Below, piece after piece: positions 683 through 51,897 of a DNA stretch of 64,000 bases (its first letter is position 1; each line of letters starts with the position of its first letter). Both the position numbers and the translations under genes were made by a program. Location of the stretch: NCBI GenBank assembly GCA_035710825.1, contig DASTCU010000219.1:2134-66133 (forward strand), written 5' to 3'. Source of the stretch: Candidatus Sulfotelmatobacter sp. Lineage in GTDB: Bacteria > Acidobacteriota > Terriglobia > Terriglobales > Acidobacteriaceae. Under the pieces are notes generated by a model. It searched no databases, was not told the DNA's origin, and saw nothing but the letters and a program-made list of their open reading frames with translations.

Positions 683-1897
683 ATGCCCGCTACCTCAACC
701 GCAAAGACCTCTGCTTCTGCTGGTCCTCTGACGCTGGCGGCATACGTGTCGTTCGTGCCAATCGGGATCGCCACCGTACTTCTCGGCCCGATGCTGCCTA
801 CGCTTTCGGCGAGATGGTCGCTGAACTATGCGCAGGCGGGCGCACTCTTTACTGCCCAGTACCTGGCATCTACGTTTGCGGTCGCGCTTTCGGGAGTGCT
901 GGCTTCCTGTTGGGGATTTCGATTTCCCATGAAGGCTGGCCTGTGGCTGGTCGCAGCCGGCCTGGCGCTGTTGCTCGCTGGGCCAGAGTGGCTAGGCATC
1001 GCCTGCATTGCAGCATACGGGGCGGGCCTGGGGCTGGCAGTTCCCGCAGCGAATCTAATGGTTGCGGCGGCGAATCCGGAGCGACGAAGCGCGACGCTGA
1101 ACCTGCTCAATTTCTTCTGGAGTGCGGGCGCAGTAGCCTGTCCGTTTCTGGTGGCCGCGGCGGCGAAGAGCCATCAGATTCCTCTCTTTCTGGGATTCGC
1201 TTCGGTGTTTTGCGCCGTGGTGGCGATTGGAATTGCGGTGATGCCCGCCCGTATTGTCGAACTGGTGCCGCATCGCCAAGTTTCCCCGCCGATCGTTCCG
1301 CTGGTTCGGAAAAAGTTGAACGCATTTCTCATTCTCGGCGTGCTATTTCTCGTGTACGTGGGCACCGAAAATGCTTTTGGGCAATGGGTAGCATCGTTTT
1401 CGAAGAGCCTCGGCAGCATGACCCTTGCAGTAGCCGTAATGACTCCGTCGTTCTTCTATGCTGCGCTGATGATCGGAAGATGGCTAGCCCCAGCACTGCT
1501 GCGTACGATGCATGAAGTAAAGCTGGTTCAGGCAGGCTTGCTGCTTGCCTGTGCAGGGACCACAGGGCTGCTGTTTTCACAGGGACTGTCTGCAGTCGTG
1601 GCCAGCGCTTGTGCCACAGGACTGGGCCTCGCCGCTGTGTATCCCATCACGATTTCGTTGTTGTCCCACGAATTTGGAACGGCGTCATCGCGGATTGGCT
1701 CGGTTATGTTCGTGCTATCCAATGTCGGAGGAGGCTTGTTTCCGTGGATTGTGGGGCTGTCATCGAACCGGTTCGGCACGCTGAAAGCCGGACTATTGGT
1801 GCCACTACTCGGGTGCGTGGCGATGTACGTTCTTTATCTACGCGAATGGCGTGGAATGGCAGTTGAAGAATCCTTGGAAAGCAATACCACTATCTAA
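683..1897 (+). CDS. MFS transporter
   Basis: 404-aa ORF made almost entirely of Gly/Ala/Leu-rich hydrophobic helices (about 12), with a short charged central loop. It directly follows the LacI-type gene. Confidence 0.8.
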   Translation: MPATSTAKTSASAGPLTLAAYVSFVPIGIATVLLGPMLPTLSARWSLNYAQAGALFTAQYLASTFAVALSGVLASCWGFRFPMKAGLWLVAAGLALLLAGPEWLGIACIAAYGAGLGLAVPAANLMVAAANPERRSATLNLLNFFWSAGAVACPFLVAAAAKSHQIPLFLGFASVFCAVVAIGIAVMPARIVELVPHRQVSPPIVPLVRKKLNAFLILGVLFLVYVGTENAFGQWVASFSKSLGSMTLAVAVMTPSFFYAALMIGRWLAPALLRTMHEVKLVQAGLLLACAGTTGLLFSQGLSAVVASACATGLGLAAVYPITISLLSHEFGTASSRIGSVMFVLSNVGGGLFPWIVGLSSNRFGTLKAGLLVPLLGCVAMYVLYLREWRGMAVEESLESNTTI

Positions 1898-3048
1898 GTC
1901 CGAAGCAACCGGGCCGTAAGGCGAGAGAGTCGAACCAAGCGATACAGCGGGGACAACAACGCGGGAAGTTGGATTGCCTCCCACTCGCTGGGACCGGGCG
2001 TGAAGATAAGGCGCATGAGAAAGCGCAAGCGGTCGGGTTTGGCCTCTCTGAGACGAAGCATCAGGCGGAAATATTCGAAAGATTCGACGTTGAACAGCGT
2101 CTCGCGGGTAATACTGGGCTCAATCTCCTCGGCAAATGCTTGGGCGGCGGCATCTTGAGGTAGGCTGGCTTCTCCTGCCGCAGGAATCGGAGCGCCGAGC
2201 ATGCGATTTGCCAGGAGCATGCCGACGCGCAAGATACGCACGACTCGCAAGTTTTTGGCTTGTTCTGCAATCAAGCCCCAGTTTAGCTTCGGCAGATTCA
2301 TGAGTCGGGCGAGGTCGCAAAGCCAGATCAGGCGTCCCCAAACGTGTTTGGCGGCGTGCAGCGAAAGAATGATGTACAGATCTTCAGCGCACGGCGTCTG
2401 CATGATACGGCCTGCGACCGGGACCGTCACCGCACGACGGAACAGTCCATCCATGTCATAGTCAGCGGCATAAAATCGCGGCTGGATGGCCCACTGAAGT
2501 TCCAGAAGATTCGGGCCTGCAATTCCATCGAAGGCGCATTCGTATCCTGATTTCAGATAAGCCCGTTCCTGCGCTTCCGGCACCGGGGCATGTGGAGTGT
2601 AGCCAAGTTCCTGAACTGCATCGCGGATACGCGAAAAATCGGAAGCGCGAATCAAGATGTCAATATCCCCGGCGTGGCGCAGTGCGATGTCTCCATAGAC
2701 AGTCTGCGCCAGGGCTAGGCCCTTATAAGCCAGCACCTTCAACCCCAGGCTAGCCAAGAGATCGTAAATTCGGATCAACTCCAGCGAGAGAAGCATTGCC
2801 TTGTGCAGGTTCGTTTGATAATTCTGCTCGAGGGCGCGCATCTCGTCAGCGGGAATGAATTCAGCTATGCTCGACAGGCGTTGATACAGAAGTGGCTGAA
2901 CGCCGTGGTGATCGGCGAAATCGAAGAGAATTCTCCAGTTAACGGGGCTCGCGAACAGATCCACCAAATTCTGCTGGCTGGCGACTTCGGAGCAAGCCGC
3001 GCGCAACAAAGACCACTCTGTCTCGTGTGCGGAACTTGTTCGGTCCAT
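1894..3048 (-). CDS. NTP_transf_5-type (uncharacterised) nucleotidyltransferase family protein
   Basis: 384 aa with the pol-beta-like NTase signature HAGDIDILI. The layout resembles the nucleotidyltransferases found beside PqqD and HPr-kinase-like genes in peptide maturation clusters. It is the last gene of the 5994->1894 operon. Confidence 0.75.
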   Translation of the reverse strand: MDRTSSAHETEWSLLRAACSEVASQQNLVDLFASPVNWRILFDFADHHGVQPLLYQRLSSIAEFIPADEMRALEQNYQTNLHKAMLLSLELIRIYDLLASLGLKVLAYKGLALAQTVYGDIALRHAGDIDILIRASDFSRIRDAVQELGYTPHAPVPEAQERAYLKSGYECAFDGIAGPNLLELQWAIQPRFYAADYDMDGLFRRAVTVPVAGRIMQTPCAEDLYIILSLHAAKHVWGRLIWLCDLARLMNLPKLNWGLIAEQAKNLRVVRILRVGMLLANRMLGAPIPAAGEASLPQDAAAQAFAEEIEPSITRETLFNVESFEYFRLMLRLREAKPDRLRFLMRLIFTPGPSEWEAIQLPALLSPLYRLVRLSRLTARLLRT

Positions 3049-3075
3049 CGGATCGGTTGGAGCGCAGGAGCCAGA

Positions 3076-4200
3076 TTACGCGTTTGCCCCGGCACCCGGA
3101 AAGCTGGCCGGCACTGGAATAGGCCGGATCTGTACGAGATTGGCTGCACCGCGTTTTTTCGCCAGCATGTTAGCCGAGGGAACCCCGGTTTTCGCAAAAG
3201 ACTTTTCGCAATCTGCCGACGATGGGCCGCGCATGTTGCCTTCCGTGTAGGCAAGGCCGGGGCAGCGTTCGCAGGAAGAGATATGGCTACACGAGGTACA
3301 GGTCGTGAGATCTTTCAGCCGGATTGAGCGCACTTCCTTCATGCGATCGGAGTGACGCCAGATATCAATGAAGCGCGATTTGCGAACATTGCCGGTGGGC
3401 AGGGGAAACTGGACGCAAGGGAAAACGTCTCCGTAAGGCGAAACGTAGCAGGTGGTATGACCGGCGCTGCAGGGAATGTGTTCCAATACGTCTTCTTCGG
3501 CGGCTGCAACCGTGCAGGATTCCTCAGCCTCACTGACAAAGTTTTCAGTGCGAAAGACCTGCTGCAGCGAACTGCGGTCAATGCGGAGATCGAGCACCGA
3601 GCGATTTCCGTCCATCATGGGAGTAATGGTTGGATCAAGCGTGCTCTGTACACCCATATCCTCGGCAAGCGCTCGCACTCCCGGATAATCCTGGAGATTC
3701 TGGACCATCAGCACGTTCGCGAGAACAACCCGCAGTCCTTGGGACTTTAGGAAGCGTGCCGCATTCAACGAACGCTGGAGCGAGCCCGGCACCAGAGTGA
3801 TGGCATCGTGGATTTCGGGACGGTGGGAATAAATGCTGATCTGGACGGACTCGACACCGAGATCACGAATCCGAGCAGCTTCCTGCTCCCGAATCAGAAT
3901 CGCGTTGGTTTTTAGTTTTACGCAGAAGGTCAGCTGCCGGCGGGCATATTCAAGAATCTCGAAGAAATCTTTGCGCAGCATGATCTCGCCGCCGCTGAGC
4001 GTAAGGATGAAAACGCCGGCTTCGGCCATCTCTTCGAGCAGGTGCTTGATCTCGGCGGTGGTCATCTCGCCGTAGTCCTGATGGTCGAGATAACAGTGCA
4101 CGCACCGCTCGTTACAGCGGTACGTGAGATCCAATTGGACACTCAGCGGAATGTTTAGACTTTCCGCTTTGTCCGTCATCTCCTCAAGCAGATTGCTCAT
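3076..4200 (-). CDS. radical SAM/SPASM domain peptide-maturase-like protein
   Basis: 374 aa. CNERCVHC (CxxxCxxC) lies near the N-terminus. The C-terminus has Cys-rich auxiliary-cluster motifs CSAGHTTCYVSPYGDVFPC and CTSCSHISSCERCPG. Its ATG overlaps the upstream stop (ATGA). Confidence 0.9.
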   Translation of the reverse strand: MSNLLEEMTDKAESLNIPLSVQLDLTYRCNERCVHCYLDHQDYGEMTTAEIKHLLEEMAEAGVFILTLSGGEIMLRKDFFEILEYARRQLTFCVKLKTNAILIREQEAARIRDLGVESVQISIYSHRPEIHDAITLVPGSLQRSLNAARFLKSQGLRVVLANVLMVQNLQDYPGVRALAEDMGVQSTLDPTITPMMDGNRSVLDLRIDRSSLQQVFRTENFVSEAEESCTVAAAEEDVLEHIPCSAGHTTCYVSPYGDVFPCVQFPLPTGNVRKSRFIDIWRHSDRMKEVRSIRLKDLTTCTSCSHISSCERCPGLAYTEGNMRGPSSADCEKSFAKTGVPSANMLAKKRGAANLVQIRPIPVPASFPGAGANA

Positions 4201-4514
4201 CGCGATGCTCCGGGAACTGCATTCGCCTGCAGGATGGGCTGCTCAGAGATCTGGATAATGGAATGACCGGCTAGATCGCGGAGGAGCGTTTCTGCGTCTT
4301 GCAGCGCCTCGGCCAGCTCGACGTCAAATTCGCCGCAAATCTTCTGCTGCACAATTTCATCGAGGGGGGTGATGCCATCGGCAGCCTGCCACAATATGGT
4401 GGCCGTCTTACTGAGCGTAAACAGAGTGGAATCGCGTCCCGACATGATCATCATTTCGCCACCAACGCTGCGCGCAGCCACTCGCGGACTGCGAGCTACG
4501 TAAAGCTTGCTCAT
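4197..4514 (-). CDS. PqqD-family protein (RiPP recognition element type peptide chaperone)
   Basis: About 105 aa with the PqqD-like pattern LFTLSKTATILWQAADGITPLDEIVQQKICGEFDV...DAETLLRDLAGHSII. The preferred start, ATG 4514, overlaps the upstream stop as ATGA; the track ORF extends to 4529. Confidence 0.8.
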   Translation of the reverse strand: MSKLYVARSPRVAARSVGGEMMIMSGRDSTLFTLSKTATILWQAADGITPLDEIVQQKICGEFDVELAEALQDAETLLRDLAGHSIIQISEQPILQANAVPGASR

Positions 4515-5335
4515 CGGATCAACTCCCAAACCCGGACATCGGGCACAAAAGTCAATCGGGAGATGGGCACCCGGCTGACGAATTCGAATGCAGAATGGAA
4601 GATTGCCTGTACCAACTCGTCATCGTTGGCAAAAAAAAGCACGTTCGAGAGCAGCGATCGGACCGCGTCAGCTGGTGCGACGGGATCGATTCGGTTCTCT
4701 TGTCCTTTAGCCAGAAGATACAGATGGGAAATGGGCGCAGAAACATTCTCCCCCAGCTTCGCCAACTCTCCTGCGAAAGGCGTGCCAAAGGCAACGTAGC
4801 CGCCCGGCTGTCGTCGCACATAAGAAATTTCGTCCGTGAGAAGAGTAACGTCGGGCGGCGCCAGACGGGAGATCGTTGTCTTTCCGGCCTCGGATGCTCC
4901 CGCAAAAACGAAAGCCTTGCCGTCACGAATGAGACTGGCCGAGTGGAGAAGGAAACCTCCCCGCCTGGCCAGCAAGATCGAATGCAAGATGCGGAGCACC
5001 GCATCCACGGAATATGGACTGTCCGTGTGCCGAATCCAGCCGCGTCCGCTAGCTGGCTCCCATTCGCTAAAAAAATCCCCGCGTTCCAAAGTCCAGCGGC
5101 CTTCTTGGCAGGCTACATGCACCTGCGCATCTGTCGGGCCGGACTCCGGCGCCGCAAGCTCAACTGTGAGATCTATTTCGGAGTGCTCGATCGAGCTGAC
5201 GAAGCCCCCATACATGCGATGCAGCAAGTTGAAGAGCACTCGGTCCGATGTCTGAACGCGAACGGGCATCTCCCCAATTTCAATGGTGAGGCTGAGGCGA
5301 TCGACTTCGGCGATTAGCTCTGGCAACGGACCCAC
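4511..5335 (-). CDS. HPr-kinase-C-terminal-domain-like P-loop protein
   Basis: 274 aa. Walker A GASEAGKTT is preceded by GGFLLHSASL and followed by LLTDE, as in the HPr kinase catalytic domain. The N-terminal ~120 aa are unassigned. Confidence 0.65.
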   Translation of the reverse strand: MGPLPELIAEVDRLSLTIEIGEMPVRVQTSDRVLFNLLHRMYGGFVSSIEHSEIDLTVELAAPESGPTDAQVHVACQEGRWTLERGDFFSEWEPASGRGWIRHTDSPYSVDAVLRILHSILLARRGGFLLHSASLIRDGKAFVFAGASEAGKTTISRLAPPDVTLLTDEISYVRRQPGGYVAFGTPFAGELAKLGENVSAPISHLYLLAKGQENRIDPVAPADAVRSLLSNVLFFANDDELVQAIFHSAFEFVSRVPISRLTFVPDVRVWELIR

Positions 5336-5359
5336 CCCTCATTTCTTTGATGCCGGAAC

Positions 5360-5830
5360 TTACGAGATCGCGGTCCAGCTACGCACGGTCAAAAGGATGC
5401 GAGCCGAGAGCTGTGAATGGCGCACTAAAGCAGCAATGGCGCGTTCGAAGAACGTCCGGCTACTCCGGAGTACCGTGCACTTTTCATTCTTCACGATCGA
5501 GGAAACTCTGCCCAGCAATTCCTGAGAATGAACCACGGGATCGGGCTGAGGGCTGGCGTCACCGCGCGTCAGGAATCTTGAGTCGTCAAGTTTTTTCACG
5601 ATGCGGTGAGCACAAAGCCACCGGTTACGGGCAAACAAAATAACGTCGCCTTCTCTTACTCCACTGGTAGTGGCCCTGTCGACAAGAAGGGTATCGCCGG
5701 GCCAAATAGCTGGCAGCATGCTACAGCCCGAGACCTGCAAGCTCAGGGTACCGCATGAGCGCAAAATCTCCTCAGCAAGATCACACTGCACGCCTTGGAC
5801 AGCGTTCTTTTGATCGAATGAATCCATCAT
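5360..5830 (-). CDS. S24/S26-superfamily serine peptidase (LexA/signal-peptidase-like), soluble
   Basis: It has the Ser motif GCSMLPAIWPGDTLLVD and the downstream motif GDVILFARNRWLCAHRIVKK. There is no N-terminal TM helix. I set the start to ATG 5830, which overlaps the stop of the small upstream ORF (ATGA); the track ORF runs to 5884. Confidence 0.7.
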   Translation of the reverse strand: MMDSFDQKNAVQGVQCDLAEEILRSCGTLSLQVSGCSMLPAIWPGDTLLVDRATTSGVREGDVILFARNRWLCAHRIVKKLDDSRFLTRGDASPQPDPVVHSQELLGRVSSIVKNEKCTVLRSSRTFFERAIAALVRHSQLSARILLTVRSWTAIS

Positions 5831-5994
5831 GAGGCACTGGGGCGGTGACTGCATCCACGGGATTCGGAGCCGATCTTTACGCAATGAAGAGCAGCCGTCA
5901 CGAAAACCTGCTCAAAACGGAAGGTCGGCTTTTCATAGGGTTTCTTAGGCTCTGGATTGGGTGGAGCATCGGAAATTGTATTGTCTGTAGGCAT
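5827..5994 (-). CDS. candidate RiPP precursor peptide (55 aa, below the ORF-track size cutoff)
   Basis: Hand translation of the minus strand gives MPTDNTISDAPPNPEPKKPYEKPTFRFEQVFVTAALHCVKIGSESRGCSHRPSAS. It fills the otherwise empty 5885-6003 gap and its stop overlaps the peptidase ATG. YEKPTF resembles the YxxPxL leader motif bound by PqqD-type RREs. There is no clear Shine-Dalgarno. Confidence 0.5.
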   Translation of the reverse strand: MPTDNTISDAPPNPEPKKPYEKPTFRFEQVFVTAALHCVKIGSESRGCSHRPSAS

Positions 5995-6003
5995 AGGAGA
6001 ACC

Positions 6004-8205
6004 TTATTTTAAACTCGCCTGGGAGGCCTGCATGGCACAACCACCAGGCCCGCCGCTTAAACACGATTGATTTGCCAGAGTGCTGAAGTATACCTGAGAA
6101 GCTCCCGCTAGAGTGCCGGAAGGGACCACGTTATCCATGATAATGCTGCTCGCTCCACCGCTGGCTTGCAAACCATTGACGGACATCGTGCCGCCGTTGA
6201 TCCAGGTCACCGTGCCGTCCACGGTGGTTCCACCTGGCGTAGTAGACCATGCCGGGGTGGTTGCCCCTGATGTTCCGGCTGTGCCCACAATTTCGACGTT
6301 GCCTTTCGAGTCTAGAATGAGAGTGGTGGAGGTGTACGCGGTGCTCGCGGCCCAAGCTGCTAGGGGCACGGCTGTAAGTGTCCCCTGATCCAGCCACGTC
6401 ACAGAGCCGTCGCTGACACTCGATCCTGCCGTGTTAGTCCAAGTGGGCGCGGTCGCAGCAGAAGTCCCGGCCTTGGTGACCACTTCAATGTGGAGCTTCG
6501 GGCTCAGGATCTGGTGGCCAACGACATAGGAATTGCTCGCCTGCCAGGGGGTCACGATAAAGCTCTCGACACACCCTTTGGAGGCGCAGGCCGCCGTCCG
6601 TCCGTGATTCGCAGGACTGAAAAAAATTCGTTCTTCCAGTCCTCCGGCAGCGTTCGGGTTCGAGACATCGGTAACTGTCGAACAAGAGTCTGTAGAGCCT
6701 GTCGTAGTTACCGTGCTCATGCTGGTGCCGGTGGCGGGAATGACCCCTGCGGCAATTGCAATTTGGTACATCGTTGGATTTGCGGCGGTATTGCCACAAA
6801 CATAGAGGTTGCCCGTAGCGTTTTTGGAAGCATAATACGCATTATCGAAAGCACCGGCATACAGGAAGTTCGGAGTTGCACTGCTGACACCGACTTGAGT
6901 TTCCGTTCCGGAACTGCCGGATGTAAACGTCGTACCCAACTGATACACGGCAGCGCATCCGTTCCCCCCACAACCGCCGCTGCCGTCATTCGACGAGAAG
7001 ACGTAAACTTTCTGGGAGGTGCTATCGACGATCGGTCCGTCTGCACTGAGCCCGGCGCCATGATCTATTTGGTGAGACACCGTGGCCGTACCGGTTGTGG
7101 CATTAACGCGTTCCAGAAATCCACCAGCATCGCCGACGAAAACATTCTGAGTCACATTGTCGAGAATAGGACTGGTAAGAGCGGTGTGATTACTAACATT
7201 CGCCTGAACCGGCCAAGGAGATCCCACTTCTGCTGGTGTTCCGTTTGTGAAGAATGGACTATATTTATGCAACAATCCTAGATTGTCGCCGACATAAGCT
7301 GTGTCGGTATCGAAGTCATACATGATTGAGGACGTCGTGTCGTTGGTCTGGGCTCCTACACCAGTGGCGCTGGTGCGCAGGAAGAATGCGGTCATGCAAG
7401 GAGCTGTGCAAGTGGGATAGGTCGCTGCGGTTTTGTAGGTAGGTGCGATTGGACTGGCAAGCGTTCCATTGTTCCCCTTCCACTTCAGCAAGACCACGTA
7501 TCCGTGAGAACCATCGGTCTGAACAAAGGCGATCTGTGAGCCGTCCAGTGAGATAACCGGGGAAGTCTTAACTGTTCCCGCAATGTTCCCCGGAAGTGTG
7601 GTGTTATATGCCCAATAGAGCGTAGGCACCGCACCAAACGCGGAGCATCCCGAATACAGATTGTCGTAGGCGAGGATGCTGGGCTTGGTGGTCGAGCTTA
7701 GCAGGCCGGTATTGAAGACCACAAAATCCGGACTCGCGACATTACTACAGGTCGCCTTGGTAATACTGAAAGAATATTTCAGAGGATAATTGCCTGCCCC
7801 GACGGTGGCACCGGAGCCCATGTTTTGCGACCAAAGGCCGCTACTGGAGGGCGCGGAAGAATCGTCCGAAGTGGCAAGGTAAGATCGCGAATCGGGATTC
7901 GAAACGTCCTCCTCCGGGGAAAGCACACGAACCATGTTGCGGCGGACAAACTGCTGCCAGTACCGCGTATTGTGGATCACGCGTGTAACCTGCTCGGGGG
8001 TGGTGGGCTGTGAAAAGATAACGTGGCCGTGACTCCAATCCGTAGGCAGGCCGTGCTCATAAGGCCTAGCAGCTTGGAGACTCAGAATCCAGCCCAACGT
8101 GACCAGCGCTACTAAGGCTCCACCAATCCTGACGAATCGCGCGGCAGTACCATTCATTATTCTCGACTCCATGGTTCGCAAGGTGCAGAGATTTGCGGGC
8201 AGCAC
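6004..8205 (-). CDS. secreted or membrane-anchored protein of unknown function (Ser/Thr/Gly-rich, beta-propeller-like middle part, repeated C-terminal modules)
   Basis: 733-aa ORF (GTG start) with an N-terminal hydrophobic anchor FVRIGGALVALVTLGWILSL. Alternative ATG starts lie at 8172 and 8157. I recognised no catalytic motif. Confidence 0.6.
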   Translation of the reverse strand: MLPANLCTLRTMESRIMNGTAARFVRIGGALVALVTLGWILSLQAARPYEHGLPTDWSHGHVIFSQPTTPEQVTRVIHNTRYWQQFVRRNMVRVLSPEEDVSNPDSRSYLATSDDSSAPSSSGLWSQNMGSGATVGAGNYPLKYSFSITKATCSNVASPDFVVFNTGLLSSTTKPSILAYDNLYSGCSAFGAVPTLYWAYNTTLPGNIAGTVKTSPVISLDGSQIAFVQTDGSHGYVVLLKWKGNNGTLASPIAPTYKTAATYPTCTAPCMTAFFLRTSATGVGAQTNDTTSSIMYDFDTDTAYVGDNLGLLHKYSPFFTNGTPAEVGSPWPVQANVSNHTALTSPILDNVTQNVFVGDAGGFLERVNATTGTATVSHQIDHGAGLSADGPIVDSTSQKVYVFSSNDGSGGCGGNGCAAVYQLGTTFTSGSSGTETQVGVSSATPNFLYAGAFDNAYYASKNATGNLYVCGNTAANPTMYQIAIAAGVIPATGTSMSTVTTTGSTDSCSTVTDVSNPNAAGGLEERIFFSPANHGRTAACASKGCVESFIVTPWQASNSYVVGHQILSPKLHIEVVTKAGTSAATAPTWTNTAGSSVSDGSVTWLDQGTLTAVPLAAWAASTAYTSTTLILDSKGNVEIVGTAGTSGATTPAWSTTPGGTTVDGTVTWINGGTMSVNGLQASGGASSIIMDNVVPSGTLAGASQVYFSTLANQSCLSGGPGGCAMQASQASLK
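6190..6552 (-). repeat. two tandem ~60-aa protein repeats within the 6004..8205 gene
   Basis: TPWQASNSYVVGHQILSPKLHIEVVTKAGTSAATAPTWTNTAGSSVSDGSVTWLDQG aligns with AAWAASTAYTSTTLILDSKGNVEIVGTAGTSGATTPAWSTTPGGTTVDGTVTWINGG. Confidence 0.7.
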
Positions 8206-8627: not shown

Positions 8628-11315
8628 TTGGACGCGTACGAGGTAGCTGGGGATATGGATCAAGGCGTGCGTGCGAGTGAAGTCAATAACGTGCTCTCGC
8701 TGGAGGAAATATCAAACCTTGCGGCGGAAGGCGGTCAATCGGCGGAAACGCTGATGAACGTCGTCGCGCTCATCGCCAAACGGTTTCATACGGATGTTTG
8801 TTCGGCATATTTGCTGGAACCGGATCGGGCCAATCTTGTGTTGGCCGCCACCGTCGGGCTGCGCCGTGAATGCGTGGGCAATCTGCGGATGGCGGTGCAC
8901 GAGGGCCTGACCGGGCTCGTCGCTGAGCAGGTACAGCCGGTTTCTGTGAGCCAGGTCAAGAATCATCCGCGGTTTAAATATTTTCGTGACGCCGGCGAAG
9001 ATGCTTATCAGTCATTCCTGGGCGTGCCCCTGGTCGATCGCGGAATCCTGCAGGGTGTTCTCGTCGTGCAAACTGTGGAAGCTCGCGTCTTCAGTGCGGA
9101 AGATATCCGCATGCTGACCGAAGCCGCCACCCAGGTTGCGCCCGTAGTCAGCGAGGCGCGCACGTTAGACCGCTTCATCGCGCCACTGCAGGAACGATTG
9201 TGGGCCCTGGCGCGCAATTTGTGGTGGAGCTGGGACCATAACGCGCAGAGCCTTTTCCTCGATCTGGATCCCGCGCGCTGGAGCGAACTGAACCACAATC
9301 CCGTGGCTCTGCTGACTGAAATTCCGCTGGCCAAGCTGGAAACCCGAGCTAACGAACTGATGCTGCATAGCCGCGTGAACTATGCCTACCGGCGCATGCT
9401 GGAATACCTCGAAGATGACCATACCTGGGGAACTCGGCACGCGGGTGTCCTGCGGCCGCATCCGGTGGCGTATTTTTCGGCAGAGTTTGGGTTGCATGAA
9501 TCCCTTCCAGTGTATTCCGGCGGACTGGGCGTGTTGGCGGGCGATCACATCAAGAGCGCTTCTGATCTCGACATTCCGCTAGTCGGCATAGGACTGTTCT
9601 ACGGACAAGGTTATTTCCGGCAGCGCCTTGATCAGGGGGGGTGGCAGCACGAGGAGTACCTCGAGACTGACGTCAATCAACTCCCCATGGAAGTGGCCAT
9701 CGGAAAAGATGGCCGGCCTGTCGTGGTAGAAATTGAGACCCGCAGCGGCCTGCTTCAGGCAAAAGTCTGGCGGGTGAAGGTGGGCCGGCGTGACCTGCTG
9801 CTGCTCGACTCGGACGTGGAAGGCAATGCGCCGGAAGATCGCGAGCTTACGTCGCGCTTGTACGGCGGAGATTTGCGCATCCGAATACGCCAGGAGTTGC
9901 TGCTGGGCGTTGGGGGCCTCCGGGCTCTGAAGGCTCTGGGAATCACTCCGGGTGTGCTTCACCTTAACGAAGGTCACAGCGGCTTTGCAGTGCTGGAAGC
10001 CATTCGCATGCGGATGGAAGATGAAGGAATCGGGTTTGACGCCGCCGTGCCGCGAGTATCGCGCGAGGTGGTTTTCACGACGCACACTCCGGTTCCAGCC
10101 GGACACGATCGATTCGACGCCAAGCTCGTCGAAGAGCACATCGGTCCGCTGCGTGAGGAATTGGGGCTTTCGCAGGAAAGCTTGCAGGGCCTCGGCCGCG
10201 AGAACACGAACAACTCCGAAGAAACGTTTTGCATGACGGTACTGGCGCTGCGGCTCTCGCGGCGGGCGAATGCGGTGTCTGCGCTGCATGGCGAAGTTTC
10301 GCGCGCCATGTGGACCGGGCTCTTTCGCGGCAAGCCTGAAGACGACGTCCCTATCGGGCACATCACCAACGGCGTCCACGTTCCTTCGTGGCTCGCGCCG
10401 CAGATGTTCCGTCTCTACGATCGTCATCTTGGAACCGATTGGCACCAGCGAGGCAGCGAGGCGAAGATCTGGCTGGGTATCGAGAATGTCGACGACGGCG
10501 AACTTTGGGAGACTCACCTCAATTTGAAGTCGCAACTGATCGAGTTCGTTCGCAAGCGAGCGGTGTCGCAGGCACAGCGGCGTGGGGAATCCCGCGAGGT
10601 ATTGCAGCGTTTGGAGCGGGTCCTCAGCCGGGACGCCTTAACCATTGGGTTCGCACGGCGCTTTGCAACTTACAAGCGCGCCAATCTCATTCTCAGCGAC
10701 ATCGAGCGACTGGCGTCGATGGTAAACGATCCCAACCGTCCCGTCCAATTCGTGTTTGCCGGCAAGGCGCATCCGCTCGATGAGCCGGGCAAGCGCGTGC
10801 TGCAGCAGATTGCGGAGTTGATGCGCGATCCCAAGTTCCGCGAGAAATTTGTCTTTGTCGAGGACTACGACATCAATGTCGGGCGGCATTTCGTGCAGGG
10901 CGTGGATGTATGGCTCAACAATCCGCGTCGCCCGCTCGAAGCTTCGGGCACGAGCGGCCAGAAAGTCGTACTGAACGGAGGACTGAATCTTTCCATTCTC
11001 GACGGTTGGTGGGCCGAGGCTTACGACGGCGTGAATGGCTTCGCTATTGGAACCGGGAAAACCCATTCCAACATGAGCGTTCACGATACGCGCGATGGCG
11101 AAGATCTGTTGCGGACTCTGCGCGACGAAGTGATTCCGCTTTACTACCAGCGCGATCGCGATGGGCTGCCCCGAGGCTGGATTAAGCGCATGAAGCGAAC
11201 CATCCGCACGCTGGGTTGGCGCTTCAATGCAGACCGCATGGTGATGGACTACACGCAGCAGTGTTATTTGCCCGCTGCGGGTGGAACTTCGAGCGAGATG
11301 CGATCCGGCTCGTAG
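8628..11315 (+). CDS. alpha-glucan phosphorylase (GT35 family) with N-terminal GAF domain
   Basis: Phosphorylase motifs: AYFSAEFGLHESLPVYSGGLGVLAGDHIKSASDL, TTHTPVPAGHD, FARRFATYKRANL, and the PLP-lysine region EASGTSGQKVVLNGG. The first ~170 aa look GAF-like (SAYLLEPDRANLVLAATVGL...FLGVPLVDRGILQGVLVVQ). The start is TTG 8628 or ATG 8655. Confidence 0.9.
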   Translation: MDAYEVAGDMDQGVRASEVNNVLSLEEISNLAAEGGQSAETLMNVVALIAKRFHTDVCSAYLLEPDRANLVLAATVGLRRECVGNLRMAVHEGLTGLVAEQVQPVSVSQVKNHPRFKYFRDAGEDAYQSFLGVPLVDRGILQGVLVVQTVEARVFSAEDIRMLTEAATQVAPVVSEARTLDRFIAPLQERLWALARNLWWSWDHNAQSLFLDLDPARWSELNHNPVALLTEIPLAKLETRANELMLHSRVNYAYRRMLEYLEDDHTWGTRHAGVLRPHPVAYFSAEFGLHESLPVYSGGLGVLAGDHIKSASDLDIPLVGIGLFYGQGYFRQRLDQGGWQHEEYLETDVNQLPMEVAIGKDGRPVVVEIETRSGLLQAKVWRVKVGRRDLLLLDSDVEGNAPEDRELTSRLYGGDLRIRIRQELLLGVGGLRALKALGITPGVLHLNEGHSGFAVLEAIRMRMEDEGIGFDAAVPRVSREVVFTTHTPVPAGHDRFDAKLVEEHIGPLREELGLSQESLQGLGRENTNNSEETFCMTVLALRLSRRANAVSALHGEVSRAMWTGLFRGKPEDDVPIGHITNGVHVPSWLAPQMFRLYDRHLGTDWHQRGSEAKIWLGIENVDDGELWETHLNLKSQLIEFVRKRAVSQAQRRGESREVLQRLERVLSRDALTIGFARRFATYKRANLILSDIERLASMVNDPNRPVQFVFAGKAHPLDEPGKRVLQQIAELMRDPKFREKFVFVEDYDINVGRHFVQGVDVWLNNPRRPLEASGTSGQKVVLNGGLNLSILDGWWAEAYDGVNGFAIGTGKTHSNMSVHDTRDGEDLLRTLRDEVIPLYYQRDRDGLPRGWIKRMKRTIRTLGWRFNADRMVMDYTQQCYLPAAGGTSSEMRSGS

Positions 11316-11373
11316 AGTCACGAGTTGGATGACTGAGTAATTGAATCAACAGCCCGTCGTTATTCATGTAGCT

Positions 11374-12924
11374 TCATTGTTCCGGAAGCGCCCACGCGAA
11401 CAGGACGCCGCCACTACTGGTGACGACGTATTGCCGGCTATCCAGTTCGTACGTGATCGGTGAACTTGTAATATGCGAACCGGAACCGGCGTGCCAGAGC
11501 GTTTTGCCATCCGTAGAGTCAAGGGCCAGGAAATTACCGTGAGCATCGCCGCTGAAGATGAGGCCGGAGTCCGTCGTAAGGATGCCTGCGCCTGATTCTT
11601 CGCCCAATTCGTGGCGCCATCGGATGTTGCCGGTCTGGTAATCGATTGCCTCGATCACCCCCGTGCCCCAAACGCCGTAGTCTGCCCCCGCCCAGCCGTA
11701 AACTCCATCGGCCGGCTTGGAAAAATAAACGCTCCAACTGGGGTGGGCACTCACCATGAACGAGCCAGTTTTTGTGTCGAAGCTGGGAGAGCGGTAATTG
11801 GTCATGCCGCCCTCGTCGGGTGCAATGAGCCGACCGTCGGGAGCTGGTTCCTTAGCCGGATTCGGAATGGGACGGCCTTGTTTATCCACTCCGAGCGTCC
11901 AGTTCACCGGACCGAATGGAACGGTAAGCAGACTCTTTCCGTTGGTGCGGTCGAGGACGAAGAAGTAGCCGTTACGGGAAGTCTGCATCAACATTTTGCG
12001 CGGCTTGCCATGGAAGTCTCCATCCACCAGCACGGGCGTCTCGACTGCATCCCAATCGTGCGTATCGTGCGGCGAGGGCTGGAATGACCAGACTAATTTC
12101 CCGGTGTCAGGATTGAGCGCGACGATGGAGCAAGTGTAGAGATCGTCGCCCGGGCGCTTGGAACCGTTCAGGACGGGAGTAGGGTTTCCAGTTCCCCAAT
12201 AGACAAGATGCAGATCGGGATCGTAGGTTCCCGTCATCCACGTCATCCCGCCGGTGGTTTGATTCGGAGTGCCCACTGGGGGCGTGGAATCCCACTGCCA
12301 CTGGGTCGTGCCGGTCTCTGGATCGATCGAGCGAAGAAAGCCGCTGAGGTTGTCAAAATCTCCAGAAACGCCGACCAGTACGTGGTTGCCCACAACCAGA
12401 GGCGCCATGCTCGTCCAGTAACCCTTGGTGACATCAGCCACTTCCACTTTCCACCGAATCATTCCATCTTTTGCGTTCAGGCAGATCAGGTGCGCATCGG
12501 GCGACAGAAAAAAGACAGACCCCTTGTACATCCCGACGCCCCGTTGACCGATGTGCTCGCCCTGGCTGCGTGGATAAGTGAACCGCCAGATCTGGTGCCC
12601 TGAGCGTGCGTCGACAGCCCAAACATTATCGGGGGCAGTGAAGTAGAGAACGCCATCAACCATCAACGGCGACGACTTGATTGGGATCGTCTGATTGGTC
12701 TGGAAGGACCATGCAAGAGCCAGGCCCTTCACGTTCTGCGGCGTGATTTGAGTGAGCGAACTGTGGCGGCGACCGGAGTAGTCGCCATGGTATCCGGGCC
12801 AACTGTTCGCAGGCGGATGCAGCAGCATTTGCTCGGCGGGTTCTTGAGCCCTTGTTATGGCGGAGACTCCCATGACCAGGAGCACGCTGACCGCAAACAT
12901 AAGTAGCCGTACTTTATTCATCAT
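11374..12924 (-). CDS. PQQ-dependent dehydrogenase family beta-propeller protein, secreted
   Basis: It has quinoprotein propeller motifs (WPGYHGDYSGRRHSSLTQI, SSPLMVDGVLYFTAPDNVWAVDARSGHQIWRF, repeated W-motifs) and the signal peptide MMNKVRLLMFAVSVLLVMGVSAITRA. The track ORF extends to 12966. Confidence 0.8.
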   Translation of the reverse strand: MMNKVRLLMFAVSVLLVMGVSAITRAQEPAEQMLLHPPANSWPGYHGDYSGRRHSSLTQITPQNVKGLALAWSFQTNQTIPIKSSPLMVDGVLYFTAPDNVWAVDARSGHQIWRFTYPRSQGEHIGQRGVGMYKGSVFFLSPDAHLICLNAKDGMIRWKVEVADVTKGYWTSMAPLVVGNHVLVGVSGDFDNLSGFLRSIDPETGTTQWQWDSTPPVGTPNQTTGGMTWMTGTYDPDLHLVYWGTGNPTPVLNGSKRPGDDLYTCSIVALNPDTGKLVWSFQPSPHDTHDWDAVETPVLVDGDFHGKPRKMLMQTSRNGYFFVLDRTNGKSLLTVPFGPVNWTLGVDKQGRPIPNPAKEPAPDGRLIAPDEGGMTNYRSPSFDTKTGSFMVSAHPSWSVYFSKPADGVYGWAGADYGVWGTGVIEAIDYQTGNIRWRHELGEESGAGILTTDSGLIFSGDAHGNFLALDSTDGKTLWHAGSGSHITSSPITYELDSRQYVVTSSGGVLFAWALPEQ

Positions 12925-12976
12925 GGATCGGAAATTCCTCAAACTTCTCAGGCACATGAGAGTCAAAGTTCGTCGT

Positions 12977-13807
12977 CTATTGCAGAGTTTGCAAATACGC
13001 CATCAGGTTATGGATGTCGGCATCGGTGTACTTGCTGAACTGTTCCGCGTGAGCAGTCACGGGCGCGTCGACTTTGAAATGCACATCTCGAGTGCGCCAG
13101 GATCGATAAGTCTCACTGGCATCGGTGAGCGCAACGGTGAACTCGTCGAGGTACGCCAGCGTGCCGGTGATGGCTTCGCCGGAAGCAAGAGTTACAGTGA
13201 CTTTTGATTTCGGGTGCTTGGGATAAAGCATCTGCTGTTCGAGTTCGAGTCCTTTATAGCGCGACGCGATGCCGGCAAGGTCACCGGTAGGGGAGTGGCA
13301 GGACGCACATCCGCCAGCGCCTTCGAAATATTTCTTGCCGGCTTCGGCGTTGCCAGTTTGCAGATCGGAGGGATCCACGCCCTTGCGTCCACCGCCGCGG
13401 CTGTGTTCGGCATTCTGCTGCGAGTGGATGAAGGCGACCAGGCTCGCGATCTGCTGATCAGAACGCTCGAAGGGCGGCATGCCCTTGTCAGGGCGGCCGT
13501 TGCGAATGACAGGGCCGATCTTGTCACCGTCAACGTCGGCTCTCACCACCCGGGAACGCGTGAGGTCGGGGCCGGTCTCGCCGCCAGTAGCATCGCGGCC
13601 ATGACAGAACGAGCAATCTTGCCGGAACTGAGCGGCCCCGCTCTGCACCAGTTCGGGCGGATAGGTCTTGGCCGGTGTGTTCTGCTGAACCGGGTTTCCT
13701 GGTGCCGGGTTTGGGGCGGAATTCTGCGCCGCCGCAACGGCCAGACCGCCAAAGCACGTGCTCGCCAAAAGCACGCCGGAACATACGCTTGATCGAAGGA
13801 CTCTCAT
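12977..13807 (-). CDS. dihaem c-type cytochrome
   Basis: It has two CxxCH haem-binding motifs (CSFCHG, CASCHS) and an N-terminal signal peptide. It lies immediately downstream of the PQQ dehydrogenase gene. Confidence 0.85.
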   Translation of the reverse strand: MRVLRSSVCSGVLLASTCFGGLAVAAAQNSAPNPAPGNPVQQNTPAKTYPPELVQSGAAQFRQDCSFCHGRDATGGETGPDLTRSRVVRADVDGDKIGPVIRNGRPDKGMPPFERSDQQIASLVAFIHSQQNAEHSRGGGRKGVDPSDLQTGNAEAGKKYFEGAGGCASCHSPTGDLAGIASRYKGLELEQQMLYPKHPKSKVTVTLASGEAITGTLAYLDEFTVALTDASETYRSWRTRDVHFKVDAPVTAHAEQFSKYTDADIHNLMAYLQTLQ

Positions 13808-16982: not shown

Positions 16983-17263
16983 GTCCGGAAATTGAAACAA
17001 GTTTCAGTTACCCACTTGCATGATTGACTCTCTGGGTTAGAATGCACCCACGCAATCTTCCGCGAGCACGGACACATCAAGCCGGCCGGCCACGCGGGAC
17101 TCAGGGCTCGCATAATCCAAAGACCTGAAATCCTACAGCCGATCGCAGGCATTTGAGTTGTATCACTGCATCCTTTGCCGCTTCAATTTTGTGGCTCACA
17201 GTTCGGCGGCAGGGATACGACTCTCCGTGCAAAAGTTGCGAACCACGATTCAGGGCTGAGCAC

Positions 17264-19834: not shown

Positions 19835-19869
19835 ACGCATCCAGCCGGCCTTCCACCGAGCGTGCCACA

Positions 19870-21849
19870 TTACGCTTGCCGCTGCCGCTTGGGCTTCAGG
19901 TTCAGCGTGCGGATCAAACGGAACAGGTGGTTGGGATGCACCCCGAGAATTCGGGCAGCCTCTGTGTAATTCCCGTTCGCCTGGTCGATCGCCCGCTCGA
20001 TCAGCGTCTTCTTCGCCTCGCGGATGCCTTCGTGCAACGGGCTGACGGGCTCTCCTGAAGAGGCGGTTTCTTCCAAAATAGAGTCTGGCAAATCCTCCGC
20101 GAGGATTAACTCCGTCGATCCCAGAACCACCGCCCGTTCAATCGCGTTCTCCAGTTCGCGAACGTTGCCAGGCCAGTCATAGCGCATCATGCAGGCACGG
20201 GCTTCAGGAGCAATCCCCGCCACCCGGCGCTTGACCTTCTCGCCATAGTGCGCGGCAAAGAATGCTGCAAGCAAAGGGATGTCTTCGCGGCGCTCGCGCA
20301 ATGCCGGCATATGCAACGACACAACATTCAATCGATAGTAGAGATCCGGGCGAAACCCTCCCGTGCGCGACGCCTCTTTCAGATCGCGATTGGTTGCCGC
20401 GATGAGCCGCACGTCAAGCTTGATAGGACGCGTGCCGCCAACCCGCTCGAACTCCCTCTCTTGCAAAACGCGCAGAAGCTTGGCTTGCATGGGGACAGCA
20501 AGCTCGCCGATTTCGTCCAGAAAGACCGTGCCTCCCTCGGCGATTTCCAGCTTCCCTTTTTTCTGCGAGACCGCTCCGGTAAAGGCTCCGCGTTCGTGTC
20601 CAAACAACTCGCTCTCCAGCAAGGTTTCGGTGATGGCAGCGCAGTTAATGGCCACGAACGGTTTATCGGCGCGTGGGCTATTGATATGAACGGCCCGCGC
20701 CACCAGTTCTTTTCCTGTGCCGCTTTCGCCCGAGATTAGTACCGTTGAATCGCGCCCTGCAACCCGGGATACGAATGCATACACGTCGTGCATGGCCTTG
20801 CTCTCACCCACCATGCTGTGATGGATATTCAGTTCCTCGTGCAGTCGGCGGTTCTCTCCGCCGAGCCTATCGAGGTGCCGGGCGTTCTCAAGCGCCAAGG
20901 CCGTGATATTTCCGAGAGTCGTGACCAACTGCAGAAGCTCGGCGTCAAAGCGAGCGCCGGGGGAACTGGCATCCAGGTACAGAATCCCAAGAACTTTTTC
21001 CTGGAGGGAAAGCGGCACCGCCAATACCGAATGCACCCGCCGTTCGATCAAGCTCTCGACCTGACGATAGGCGTCCTCGCTCTGGACATCATTCGACAGC
21101 ACCGCCAGGTTCTCCTCAAGGACGCGGTTCAGGATGGTCTGGCTGGCGTGGATCGGCTGATTGGGACCCAGGCGGCGATGCCTTCCCACTACTGAAGAGA
21201 ATCCGGCCACGTCGTCTTCCGTCAACATGATAGCTGCTTGATCCGCGGGGACGATCCCGAGCACGGCCTCCAGGACCTTCTCCTGCAGGGCTGCCAGGCC
21301 GCGCACCGAATTCAAGGTCCGGCTGAAGTCGAGCAGCACATTGAGGTCGCGAACCGTTTTAGCAGTCGCGGGCAGCGCCTCAGGCCGCGCAGGCTGCAGG
21401 TAGAGAGCATCCTCCTTGCGCAGGATAACGGTCGCGGAGCCCGGCACCGGGCTTGCATCCAGTTGGAGAGAGAGATTGCCCGGGTTGGTCTCACTATTTG
21501 GTCCTTGAAAGATGAGGACTGAGTTCCCGACCCGGATCTGATCGCCGGGGACCAGGACCCGCTCCCGTACCGGGACGCCGCTTACGAAAGTATTGTTGCG
21601 GCTCTCCAAGTCCAGGAGGCGGAAAGCATCACTTTCCTTGCGAATTACACAGTGACGCCGGGAGACCAGGGAATCGAGTAGCGAGATCTCGTTGGAGGGA
21701 TCGCGGCCGATGGAGACCTCACCGGTTGTCAGCGAGAAGAGTTTTCCTTTGAGAGGACCGCTTACCGCTTCTAGCCGCGCGCCGGCTACGGAAGCACGAA
21801 TCTCTCCAGTCGAATCGCCCATGACGCAATGAGTATACCCGCAGGTCAC
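19870..21849 (-). CDS. sigma54-dependent transcriptional activator with FHA and GAF sensory domains
   Basis: FHA motif ([24 protein letters not shown]), a GAF-like middle region, AAA+ Walker A GESGTGKE, the GAFTGA sigma54-contact motif, and a C-terminal Fis-type HTH ([21 protein letters not shown]). An alternative ATG start lies at 21822. Confidence 0.9.
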
Positions 21850-51590: not shown

Positions 51591-51897
51591 CGAATTTCTT
51601 CGACAGCGCTCTCGCCAATCCCCGCATTTCACGCCGGCCATTCCGTTTCGAGAACACACAAGTTCATATCCACACTCACAGGTGCCTCTCCCGATTGACT
51701 CGCTTGCGTCTCTGCAATAACGTTTGCACAGTTTCATTCGCCACAATCCCGCGCCGTCGCTGACGGACAACTCGGCCCAGGTATCCGTCTCAGCAACGGC
51801 CTCCGAAGGCCACTTCAATCGGTTAATAAATCGTGCCTCGCAATCCGCACGCGCGAGGCCGGCGCTCTTAGTGTGTTCGAAGGTAAAGGAGAAACCA

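Follow-up and report, generated by a model that had tools for sequence, protein, structure and literature searches.

A recurrent operon of Acidobacteriota in which lasso- and LPP-type peptide tailoring genes accompany a radical SAM/SPASM enzyme

We analysed a 64,000-nucleotide stretch of DNA from Candidatus Sulfotelmatobacter sp. (GenBank assembly GCA_035710825.1, contig DASTCU010000219.1, positions 2,134 to 66,133 of the forward strand), which we call the window. Near its start lies a compact minus-strand operon that encodes a small precursor peptide together with a signal peptidase I (SpI)-like peptidase, an HprK-like P-loop protein, a discrete PqqD-type recognition element (RRE) of the kind that serves peptides ribosomally synthesised and post-translationally modified (RiPPs), a radical S-adenosylmethionine enzyme with a SPASM domain (rSAM), an NTP_transf_5 nucleotidyltransferase and a beta-propeller. 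The description that fits the evidence is an uncharacterised, rSAM-bearing relative of two pathways, that of the phosphorylated lasso peptides and that of the linear polyphosphorylated peptides (LPPs) of Bacillota reported by Popov et al. (Nat Commun, May 2026, PMC13381572).

Operon layout and recurrence

The operon spans approximately positions 8157 to 1894 and, judged from its open reading frames (ORFs) and neighbours, comprises seven genes (Table 1). These are tightly packed and translationally coupled, with the propeller gene ending 9 nt ahead of the peptide gene start and with ATGA start/stop overlaps at three junctions, namely peptide/peptidase at 5830, HprK/PqqD at 4514 and PqqD/rSAM at 4200, the last two flanking the RRE gene on both sides. 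The overlaps place the RRE start at 4514 (105 amino acids, aa) and the peptidase start at ATG 5830 (156 aa), the most likely choice over 5884, and the propeller likely starts at ATG 8157, since its homologues are about 716 aa long. An earlier note on this DNA had described six co-directional minus-strand genes here, and all six ORFs are present and spaced as described, with domain assignments upheld by profile searches against Pfam and NCBIfam; its gene count fell one short, having overlooked the operon's first gene (6004-8157). The same genes, the 55-aa peptide included, appear in the gene-caller annotation of another, independent assembly of this organism, a Candidatus Sulfotelmatobacter metagenome-assembled genome (MAG). 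Promoter and terminator scans gave no signal over shuffled expectation.

Table 1. Features of the operon and of its precursor peptide (window positions), with the exporter genes found at other loci
Feature	Position	Strand	Evidence and remarks
NTP_transf_5 protein	1894..3048	minus	PF14907 5e-56 (profile search); gene-caller start 3009; predicted accessory tailoring enzyme
Radical SAM/SPASM enzyme, 374 aa	3076..4200	minus	PF04055 3e-22, PF13186 8e-11; predicted core-modifying maturase
Discrete PqqD-type RRE, 105 aa	4197..4514 (ORF 4197-4529)	minus	PF05402 3e-10
HprK/ScmC-family P-loop protein	4511..5335	minus	Gene-caller start 5326; predicted peptide kinase
Signal peptidase I-like soluble peptidase, 156 aa	5360..5830 (ORF 5360-5884)	minus	Predicted leader peptidase
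Precursor peptide, 55 aa, MPTDNTISDAPPNPEPKKPYEKPTFRFEQVFVTAALHCVKIGSESRGCSHRPSAS	5827..5994	minus	ORF; gene-called in independent assembly
Beta-propeller, probably membrane-anchored, 717 aa	6004..8157 (ORF open to GTG 8205)	minus	Operon's first gene
Predicted leader (residues 1-33) and predicted 22-aa core (residues 34-55)	core 5830-5895	minus	
Leader motif Y20-E-K-P-T-F25 (YxKPxF)	5920..5937	minus	Predicted RRE-binding site
Leader end F31-V-T33 (family F-[E/V]-T)	5896..5904	minus	Predicted cleavage after Thr33
Cys38, first invariant core Cys, in A-L-x-C-G-K	5881..5883	minus	69/69 and 106/106 sequences
Cys48, second invariant core Cys, nine residues past the first	5851..5853	minus	69/69 and 106/106 sequences
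Ser55, invariant C-terminal residue	5830..5832	minus	69/69 orthologues; predicted phosphorylation site
ABC-2 exporter pair	L045:5223-6880		Equivalents in L040, L052, L057, L063, L064, L068, L073, L076

Scanning one genome per species with the rSAM protein yielded 80 loci (60-83% identity; individual loci are given by L number), in which we counted gene presence by tblastn and all-against-all ORF clustering. The rSAM and PqqD genes are found in all 80 (tblastn), the HprK-like gene in 78, the precursor in 77 and the peptidase in 75-76, and these five are colinear in identical order in at least 75 of the 80 species-level genomes. The gene set therefore recurs in other genomes, as the earlier reading required of a genuine cassette, and the arrangement lies far beyond chance. 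Directly upstream of the peptide, the propeller gene is conserved in 65-69 loci and is often duplicated, and NTP_transf_5 is an accessory gene present in 53 (41 downstream on the same strand, 12 divergent upstream). ORF clustering revealed no further widely recurring family at the 80 loci.

Two minimal loci (L050:5473-8931 and L056:6810-11077) hold propeller, peptide, PqqD and rSAM genes only, with no peptidase or HprK-like gene within 10 kb, and this retention marks the peptide-RRE-rSAM trio as the persistent core. The L056 peptide gene is inverted, and the precursors of both loci still have the F-E-T leader end and the C-terminal Ser. Some loci are instead expanded: two precursor genes with differing loop sequences occur in L047 (6080-6259 and 8228-8404), L074 (7735-7920 and 8123-8308) and L077 (3315-3482 and 6102-6263), and two to five propeller paralogues or fragments in L037, L041, L043, L047, L051, L055 and L057. 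At one distant locus, L047, a class I SAM methyltransferase gene (11123-11845) stands right after the rSAM gene and may encode an extra tailoring enzyme.

Carriers are mostly Terriglobia/Acidobacteriota MAGs, with a few labelled Binatia, deltaproteobacteria, Methylomirabilota or Verrucomicrobiia. The loci in MAGs labelled Binatia, Verrucomicrobiia, Methylomirabilota or 'delta proteobacterium' are L009, L024, L033, L042, L051, L055, L062, L066 and L077, and at L009 and L024 the flanking synteny follows the acidobacterial pattern as well. These non-acidobacterial labels suggest mis-binning or recent horizontal transfer.

Precursor family and associated proteins

Across 69 orthologues of the precursor, a variable hydrophilic N-terminus of 16-26 residues is followed by a shared leader, with consensus [K/R]-K-P-Y-x-K-P-x-F-R-x-E-x-V-F-[E/V]-T, and a core, with consensus x-A-L-[S/A]-C-G-K-x7-C-x6-S, that runs to the stop codon. 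Invariant in the family are Y, P, E, F, A, the two Cys and the C-terminal Ser. A word-indexed homologue search with the 55-aa peptide returned itself alone; a full HMMER scan with the precursor family over 1.84 billion representative proteins (clusters at 50% identity) returned 93 further precursor clusters, 89 with the terminal Ser and 84 with exactly two Cys, and the four that lack the terminal Ser appear to be truncated or frameshifted. For the 22-residue core, the pattern over 106 canonical-length sequences is x-A-L-s-C-G-K-[V/I]-x-x-T-Q-x-x-C-x-x-N-[R/P]-K-x-S. Most family members keep a C-x9-C spacing, and the window precursor has V replacing the G of A-L-x-C-G-K. Upstream in the leader, YxKPxF (Y and P invariant, K in 66/69, F in 67/69) fits the pattern [Y/W]xxPx[L/V/I/F/A], the motif bound by lasso and LPP RREs (PMC13381572).

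In NCBIfam the PqqD-type protein best matches the PqqD chaperones of GeoRSP and lasso systems, in every case below cut-off, and its nearest solved structures by sequence are the lasso B1 proteins TfuB1, TbiB1 and 9x90_B. A hidden Markov model (HMM) of the RRE family gave 35.7 bits with an acidobacterial RRE from cluster 3 of the sequence similarity network (SSN) of Popov et al., 14.4 with a paeninodin-type B1 and 7.3 with LppB, the RRE of LPP clusters, and BLASTP of the window RRE against LppB produced no alignment.

In the rSAM, the motifs CNERCxHC (C29/C33/C36; CNERCVHC in the window) and S69-G-G-E72 are invariant across 80 orthologues, as are seven SPASM cysteines (C244, C262, C301, C304, C310, C313 and C331), which thus provide a full set of auxiliary-cluster ligands. 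The enzyme has no N-terminal RRE domain and would therefore rely on the separate PqqD protein. Of the curated models, MftC matches it best (141.7 bits, with the cut-off at 265), ahead of AhbD and NirJ2, and no match reaches cut-off; its nearest solved structures are SkfB (2.9e-15), followed by PqqE, SuiB and CteB. In keeping with the earlier reading, it thus falls short of the cut-off for every curated cofactor or protein maturase family, and it stands in the same context in 80/80 genomes, so that it is not a cofactor maturase family of another context. With two invariant Cys in the core, a full SPASM domain and SkfB as nearest structure, Cys thioether crosslinks are the leading guess for its reaction. 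Other possible reactions that we considered are anSME-like formylglycine formation and MftC-like C-terminal decarboxylation, neither of which has a supporting motif.

The peptidase matches PF00717 (1.6e-6); in NCBIfam its top match is to archaeal-type signal peptidase I (TIGR02228), where it scores 47.6 bits and the cut-off is 51.85. Orthologue alignment shows S37, H75, D91 and D97 to be invariant, and the catalytic Ser, His-Arg and Gly-Asp motifs fall within the protein's alignment to SEC11A/C; the enzyme is therefore of the S26B-type Ser/His(/Asp) kind, not the LexA-type Ser/Lys kind, so that of its initial label as a LexA/signal-peptidase-like serine protease the signal-peptidase part holds (Sec11/SipW-like, S26B) and the LexA part does not. 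Hydrophobicity of the operon proteins gave no transmembrane (TM) segment for it. We took LppS, LppB and LppA sequences from Supplementary Data 1 of PMC13381572; in pairwise comparison the window peptidase and LppS, the leader peptidase of LPP clusters, share 30% identity over 93 aa (E 2e-11), and LppS scores 75 bits against an HMM of 74 acidobacterial orthologues. The peptidase is closer, at about 100 bits, to non-Bacillota SpI proteins of SSN cluster 3, one of which comes with the RRE that matches our family model at 35.7 bits; members of this group include OLE53994.1 and PYP86427.1. Among the 22 close relatives retrieved by a word-indexed search with the peptidase there was no LppS from Bacillota. 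From these similarities we predict that it is a leader peptidase.

LppS, with a triad of S29/H68/D93, cuts after T-1 and only with LppB present, and F-3, E-2 and T-1 matter for its cleavage (PMC13381572). At the corresponding leader end of the acidobacterial precursors, F is always present, as is either E or V (69/69 each), and T occurs in 66/69, and by analogy we infer cleavage of the window precursor after Thr33. An A-x-A-style signal-peptidase cut after T-x-A, which would begin the core at Leu, was passed over for the mapped LppS-type cut after Thr.

NCBIfam matches of the HprK-like protein are ScmC TIGR04249 (2e-7), HprK_rel_A (1.9e-5) and HprK_rel_B (2e-4), all below cut-off, and the copy in the independent assembly has a precomputed Pfam match to PF27840 ScmC. 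Its invariant residues are His131, G146-x-S-x-A-G-K152-T-T and D168-E169, of which H, K and D have aligned counterparts in the kinase that belongs to the bona fide lasso cluster of L040, and they match the His-Lys-Asp-acid pattern reported for lasso kinases (PMC9266682). The P-loop region aligns to ATP-dependent phosphoenolpyruvate carboxykinase (PEPCK), a fold common to HPrK/P, and the HprK family profile gave marginal PEPCK, HPrK and P-loop matches only against the PDB. Among characterised proteins, the lasso HprK-like kinases PadeK, ThcoK, SyanK and PsmK phosphorylate a conserved C-terminal Ser, often repeatedly, and the NTP_transf_5-type PsmN adds hexoses to the phosphate of phospho-Ser (PMC9266682). 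Invariant residues of the NTP_transf_5 protein here are K109-G110 and D128-x-D130.

The propeller has at least 1698 homologues, all named 'hypothetical' and some with PF13570, and gave no match in Pfam or PDB sequence searches. An AlphaFold (AF2) model built with 30 homologues (predicted TM-score 0.82) has a helix at residues 4-29 followed by an all-beta propeller, and Foldseek with this model returned generic WD40, BamB and YncE propellers only. It has 12 invariant Cys and is the sole operon protein with a TM-grade hydrophobic segment; as modelled, it is probably anchored with an extracytoplasmic domain, which the TM helix and the invariant Cys fit. In nine of the 80 loci a DrrA/DrrB-type ABC-2 exporter adjoins the peptide gene, including six of the eight complete loci without a propeller, and the two look partly interchangeable. 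The position of the exporter beside the peptide gene in propeller-less loci points to an exported product, and the near-universal, membrane-anchored propeller suggests a dedicated extracytoplasmic partner of that product.

Proposed maturation and rival readings

Taken together, we give slightly better than an even chance to the reading that this operon is an Acidobacteriota relative of LPP and phospho-lasso tailoring, with a radical SAM/SPASM enzyme added, that carries out RRE-guided peptide maturation. The chemical steps, their order and the cleavage site are what we infer from the observed gene content, conservation, motifs and homologies. The discrete RRE would recognise the precursor through leader YxKPxF, as the identity of this motif with those of lasso and LPP leaders indicates, and would present it to the rSAM, whose gene is translationally coupled to its own and which would modify the fixed-length core. 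The likeliest change is that the two invariant Cys form one or two intramolecular crosslinks, possibly thioethers of the sacti or ranthi type. The HprK/ScmC-family protein could then phosphorylate a Ser, possibly several times, with the invariant C-terminal Ser as the likeliest site by the precedent of paeninodin-type lasso peptides, and the NTP_transf_5 protein, where present (the window included), might further decorate the phosphate. Finally, the soluble SpI-like protease would cut after the Thr of F-[E/V]-T, like its homologue LppS, releasing residues 34-55. The mature peptide of about 22 residues may act with, or be handled by, the membrane-anchored extracytoplasmic propeller, which a DrrAB-type ABC-2 exporter would replace in some lineages.

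Several observations weigh against this pathway. Support for a kinase comes from weak similarity (20-30 bits) centred on the P-loop, and a single-sequence structure model of the HprK-like protein reached a mean predicted local distance difference test (pLDDT) of 33. The terminal Ser is kept in L050 and L056 with no kinase gene nearby, and could matter in some other way. Core residues T11, Q12, N18 and K20 are just moderately conserved in the 106 sequences, leaving no invariant acceptor residue for a crosslink, and the best curated matches of the rSAM are MftC, AhbD and NirJ, not thioether synthases. The window operon encodes no exporter; the adjacent major facilitator superfamily (MFS) gene is convergent and conserved in close relatives only. 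As for the link to LPPs, the RRE is barely similar to LppB, the peptide HMM detects no LppA, and the core has no conserved counterpart of the LPP phosphosite at core Ser3, position 4 being Ser in 61/106 sequences. With the RRE so weakly similar and LppA undetected, the link could be one of modular reuse and not of common descent of the whole pathway.

A different fate for the peptide, to which we assign a small though appreciable probability, is that it becomes, once crosslinked or phosphorylated, a small subunit, prosthetic group or dedicated ligand of the propeller, not a free product, by a logic resembling that of QhpC/QhpD/QhpB in quinohemoprotein amine dehydrogenase or of the PQQ and mycofactocin cofactors. 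The placement of the propeller gene, first in the operon, 9 nt from the peptide gene, recurrent in 65-69 loci and often multicopy, speaks for such a role, as do a fixed-length and highly conserved core, which is more usual for peptides constrained by a partner than for antimicrobials, and the lack of exporter and immunity genes among the ORFs and annotation of the window operon; the best curated rSAM match is moreover the mycofactocin maturase, and a discrete PqqD partner is the PQQ and mycofactocin arrangement. Against it, the propeller shows no signature of a cofactor-binding family and its structural neighbours are all generic, some lineages have the ABC-2 exporter and no propeller, and the MftC and PqqE cut-offs are missed widely (141.7 vs 265 and 101.9 vs 381), while the precursor has none of the Trp, Tyr or Glu-Tyr residues used by known peptide-derived cofactors. 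A crosslinked, C-terminally phosphorylated peptide of about 22 residues, made in place of an antibiotic-like natural product, together with its propeller would make an undescribed kind of peptide/receptor or peptide/enzyme pair, widespread in soil and peat Terriglobia, a tentative idea that we hold to be unlikely. We see a slimmer prospect in the locus making an ordinary LPP, with the rSAM introducing a minor non-crosslinking change such as epimerisation or methylation, or having another role altogether. Four of the five LPP core enzyme families and the YxxP and F-E-T leader elements are indeed shared, but the rSAM and RRE are the most conserved components (80/80) and persist in loci that lack peptidase and kinase, a purely linear phosphopeptide would have no use for two invariant Cys at fixed spacing, and LPP cores are long, variable, rich in Gly, Pro and Lys and phosphorylated at Ser3, whereas those here are short and conserved, with Ser at position 4 in 61/106. 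Nor is there an MsbA-type exporter here, and LPPs are described as restricted to Bacillota (PMC13381572).

Membership in the SynChlorMet (Scm) cassette or in a GeoRSP system is very improbable. The best match of the HprK-like protein is ScmC, as is its precomputed Pfam family PF27840, the rSAM matches ScmE and GeoRSP_rSAM at about 1e-30, and the PqqD protein has the GeoRSP PqqD as its best NCBIfam match, yet all Scm and GeoRSP scores fall far below the curated cut-offs, there is one rSAM where Scm has two, and ScmD is not among the PqqD matches. Scarcely credible, in our judgement, is a lasso cluster with its cyclase and B2 protease elsewhere in the genome. Such a cluster would account for an RRE nearest to lasso B1, for a YxxPx[hydrophobic] leader with a conserved Thr near the predicted junction, and for a kinase and NTP_transf_5 enzyme that are typical lasso tailoring genes, but it would also have to place a dedicated serine leader peptidase where B2 belongs, and a core with no conserved Asp/Glu at positions 7-9 (106 sequences) where the isopeptide ring should form. 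The missing cyclase and B2, remarked on at the outset for all 64 kb, were confirmed by ORF scan, motif search and tblastn: none of the ten ORFs scanned, which were those of 460-900 aa without another assignment, has an Asn_synthase domain (ORFs of 1053-1155 aa and of 482 aa lay outside that scan), no SGGxDS PP-loop motif occurs in the window, and tblastn with the acidobacterial lasso C and B2 proteins of L040 found no match either in the window or across the 7 kb lying beyond its start (L081). At 79 of the 80 loci the surroundings of the operon out to 10 kb contain neither cyclase nor B2, and tblastn with the L040 B2 (NF033537, 92.6 bits) found L040 itself only. The lasso genes of L040 form a separate cluster on the opposite strand, which has a precursor, B1 and kinase of its own.

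This cluster at L040 (2992-6760, minus strand), from an acidobacterial MAG, is a complete, kinase-bearing lasso cluster immediately upstream of, and divergent from, the rSAM operon, comprising a 54-aa precursor with a KKPYSKPEL leader, a cyclase, B1, B2 and an HprK-like kinase.

Several further genes in the window lie outside the operon. Upstream, beyond a 420-nt gap, a divergent gene (8628-11315, plus strand) encodes an unusual fusion of an N-terminal GAF domain to a DUF3417/alpha-glucan phosphorylase, whose synteny with the operon is limited to some 32 close relatives; downstream is the convergent MFS gene, and a LacI-type regulator is also among the neighbours (profile search and annotation). 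The MFS and phosphorylase genes are confined to close relatives as plain synteny. The interval 11374-13807 on the minus strand holds a gene for a PQQ-dependent dehydrogenase (PF01011, 1e-75) and, after it, one for a dihaem cytochrome c; the dehydrogenase's beta-propeller is unrelated to that of the operon, and no pqq biosynthesis genes were noticed among the window ORFs checked. Side by side at 17153-21849 are genes for an 893-aa Ser/Thr protein kinase with fused WD40/PD40 repeats and for a 659-aa sigma-54 activator with FHA and GAF domains, and the two may form a phospho-signalling pair. A 571-aa ORF at 51724-53439 (plus strand) has no Pfam match at 1e-4.

Comparison with known systems

With mycofactocin (MftA/B/C/E) and PQQ (PqqA/D/E/F) biosynthesis, the operon shares a discrete PqqD-family chaperone, a SPASM rSAM, a small precursor with an invariant C-terminal region and a peptidase. 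Its precursor, however, ends in x-S, with neither the C-terminal Val-Tyr (GVY) nor a Glu-Tyr pair, and its kinase, nucleotidyltransferase and SpI-like peptidase are foreign to those pathways; membership in either was rejected on the MftC and PqqE scores given above. Like SynChlorMet and GeoRSP, two systems delimited by comparative genomics, the operon combines a PqqD homologue with an rSAM/SPASM enzyme, and Scm also has an HprK-like protein of the ScmC family. Unlike them, it has a peptidase, an NTP_transf_5 enzyme, a beta-propeller and a defined precursor family, and it has a single rSAM, as against two in Scm. In the TIGRFAM descriptions, neither Scm nor GeoRSP is known to be defined with a signal-peptidase-like protease, an NTP_transf_5 enzyme or a beta-propeller. 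Model scores are far below cut-off throughout (ScmC 30.7 vs 125, ScmE 103.2 vs 400, ScmF 53.6 vs 400; GeoRSP rSAM 105.3 vs 400 and PqqD 21.8 vs 100), and no ScmD appears among the NCBIfam matches of the PqqD protein, so that of the SynChlorMet likeness drawn in the earlier note the ScmC-family kinship of the HprK-like protein survives and membership in the cassette does not.

Sactipeptide and ranthipeptide maturases such as SkfB, AlbA and CteB are similar to the predicted maturase here in being RRE-dependent SPASM rSAM enzymes with a full set of auxiliary-cluster Cys that act on a short Cys-containing core. They usually carry their own N-terminal RRE, whereas the RRE here is a separate protein, and the core here has no invariant acceptor residue. 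All curated sactipeptide and ranthipeptide models were missed (StsB 95 vs 625, AlbA 74 vs 850, SkfB 71 vs 300). We know of no kinase, nucleotidyltransferase or SpI-like peptidase in these classes.

The phosphorylated lasso peptides (paeninodin, the ThcoK and SyanK substrates, and pseudomycoidin) come closer, with a B1-type RRE and a YxxP leader, an HprK-like kinase with C-terminal-Ser substrates and an NTP_transf_5 enzyme (PsmN). The lasso trait of a B1-type PqqD RRE paired with a YxxPx[hydrophobic] leader is thus found here as well. What differs is that the operon has a serine peptidase and an rSAM in place of an Asn-synthetase-like cyclase and a transglutaminase-like B2, and a core with no ring-forming acidic residue. 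The description of the locus as a RiPP-like operon that joins lasso-type recognition and tailoring parts to a radical SAM/SPASM enzyme, with no lasso cyclase, is accordingly supported; RRE, kinase homologue and NTP_transf_5 enzyme do occur in lasso clusters, though not there exclusively, as the same trio also belongs to the LPP module.

LPP clusters, with components designated LppA, K, B, S, D and N, contain the SipW/archaeal-type signal-peptidase-like LppS, the RRE LppB, the HprK-like LppK, the NTP_transf_5 LppN and an MsbA-like exporter, and have no lasso cyclase (PMC13381572). Their domain families are given as TIGR02228, PqqD, NTP_transf_5 and HprK kinase, their precursors bear the motif YxxPxVLxHQxIxFETxxS, and LppK polyphosphorylates core Ser3 (PMC13381572). 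The acidobacterial operon likewise has a soluble SpI-like leader peptidase, homologous to LppS and with the Ser/His/Asp triad in both, as well as a discrete PqqD RRE, an HprK-like kinase and an NTP_transf_5 enzyme without a lasso cyclase, the likeness of the kinase and NTP_transf_5 enzyme being one of domain names and not of sequence comparison with LppK and LppN. Leaders of both have YxxPx[hydrophobic] and end in F-E-T, and the one locus of the 80 where the operon lies beside a lasso cluster (L040) echoes the LPP/lasso co-localisation reported in Bacillota (PMC13381572). There are differences too: the radical SAM/SPASM gene is the most conserved here and has no counterpart in LPP clusters; the core is 22 aa long and conserved, with two Cys and a C-terminal Ser, against long and variable LPP cores with phospho-Ser3; the spacing from YxxP to FET is two residues shorter; a propeller or sometimes an ABC-2 exporter stands in place of the MsbA-type exporter; and the carriers belong to Acidobacteriota and a few further soil lineages instead of Bacillota. 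LPPs are called restricted to Bacillota in the original description, the text of which mentions neither radical SAM enzymes nor Acidobacteria (PMC13381572), and we found no description of the combination of rSAM, HprK, PqqD, peptidase and nucleotidyltransferase in NCBIfam release 20 or the searchable literature. To speak of an uncharacterised RiPP class, as the earlier note did, is nevertheless too strong, given that peptidase, RRE, kinase and NTP_transf_5 already form the LPP core; the rSAM-bearing relative itself is uncharacterised.

Such a family would extend the module of SpI-like peptidase, RRE, HprK kinase and NTP_transf_5 enzyme, previously known only from lasso tailoring and the LPP family (2026), from Bacillota to Acidobacteriota, in hosts such as Ca. 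Sulfotelmatobacter that are abundant, mostly uncultured peat and soil Terriglobia with little-known peptide chemistry. Joined to a radical SAM/SPASM enzyme, the module predicts a scaffold both radical-crosslinked and phosphorylated or phospho-glycosylated, none such having been characterised. With a well-defined precursor family and a small enzyme set, this prediction is directly testable by heterologous expression, and the operon offers a handle on the reactions of ScmC-family HprK-like proteins and NTP_transf_5 enzymes. Compared with LPPs, the new elements are an rSAM/SPASM enzyme, a Cys/Ser precursor family of a distinct kind, a beta-propeller, the host phylum and the lack of an MsbA-type exporter.

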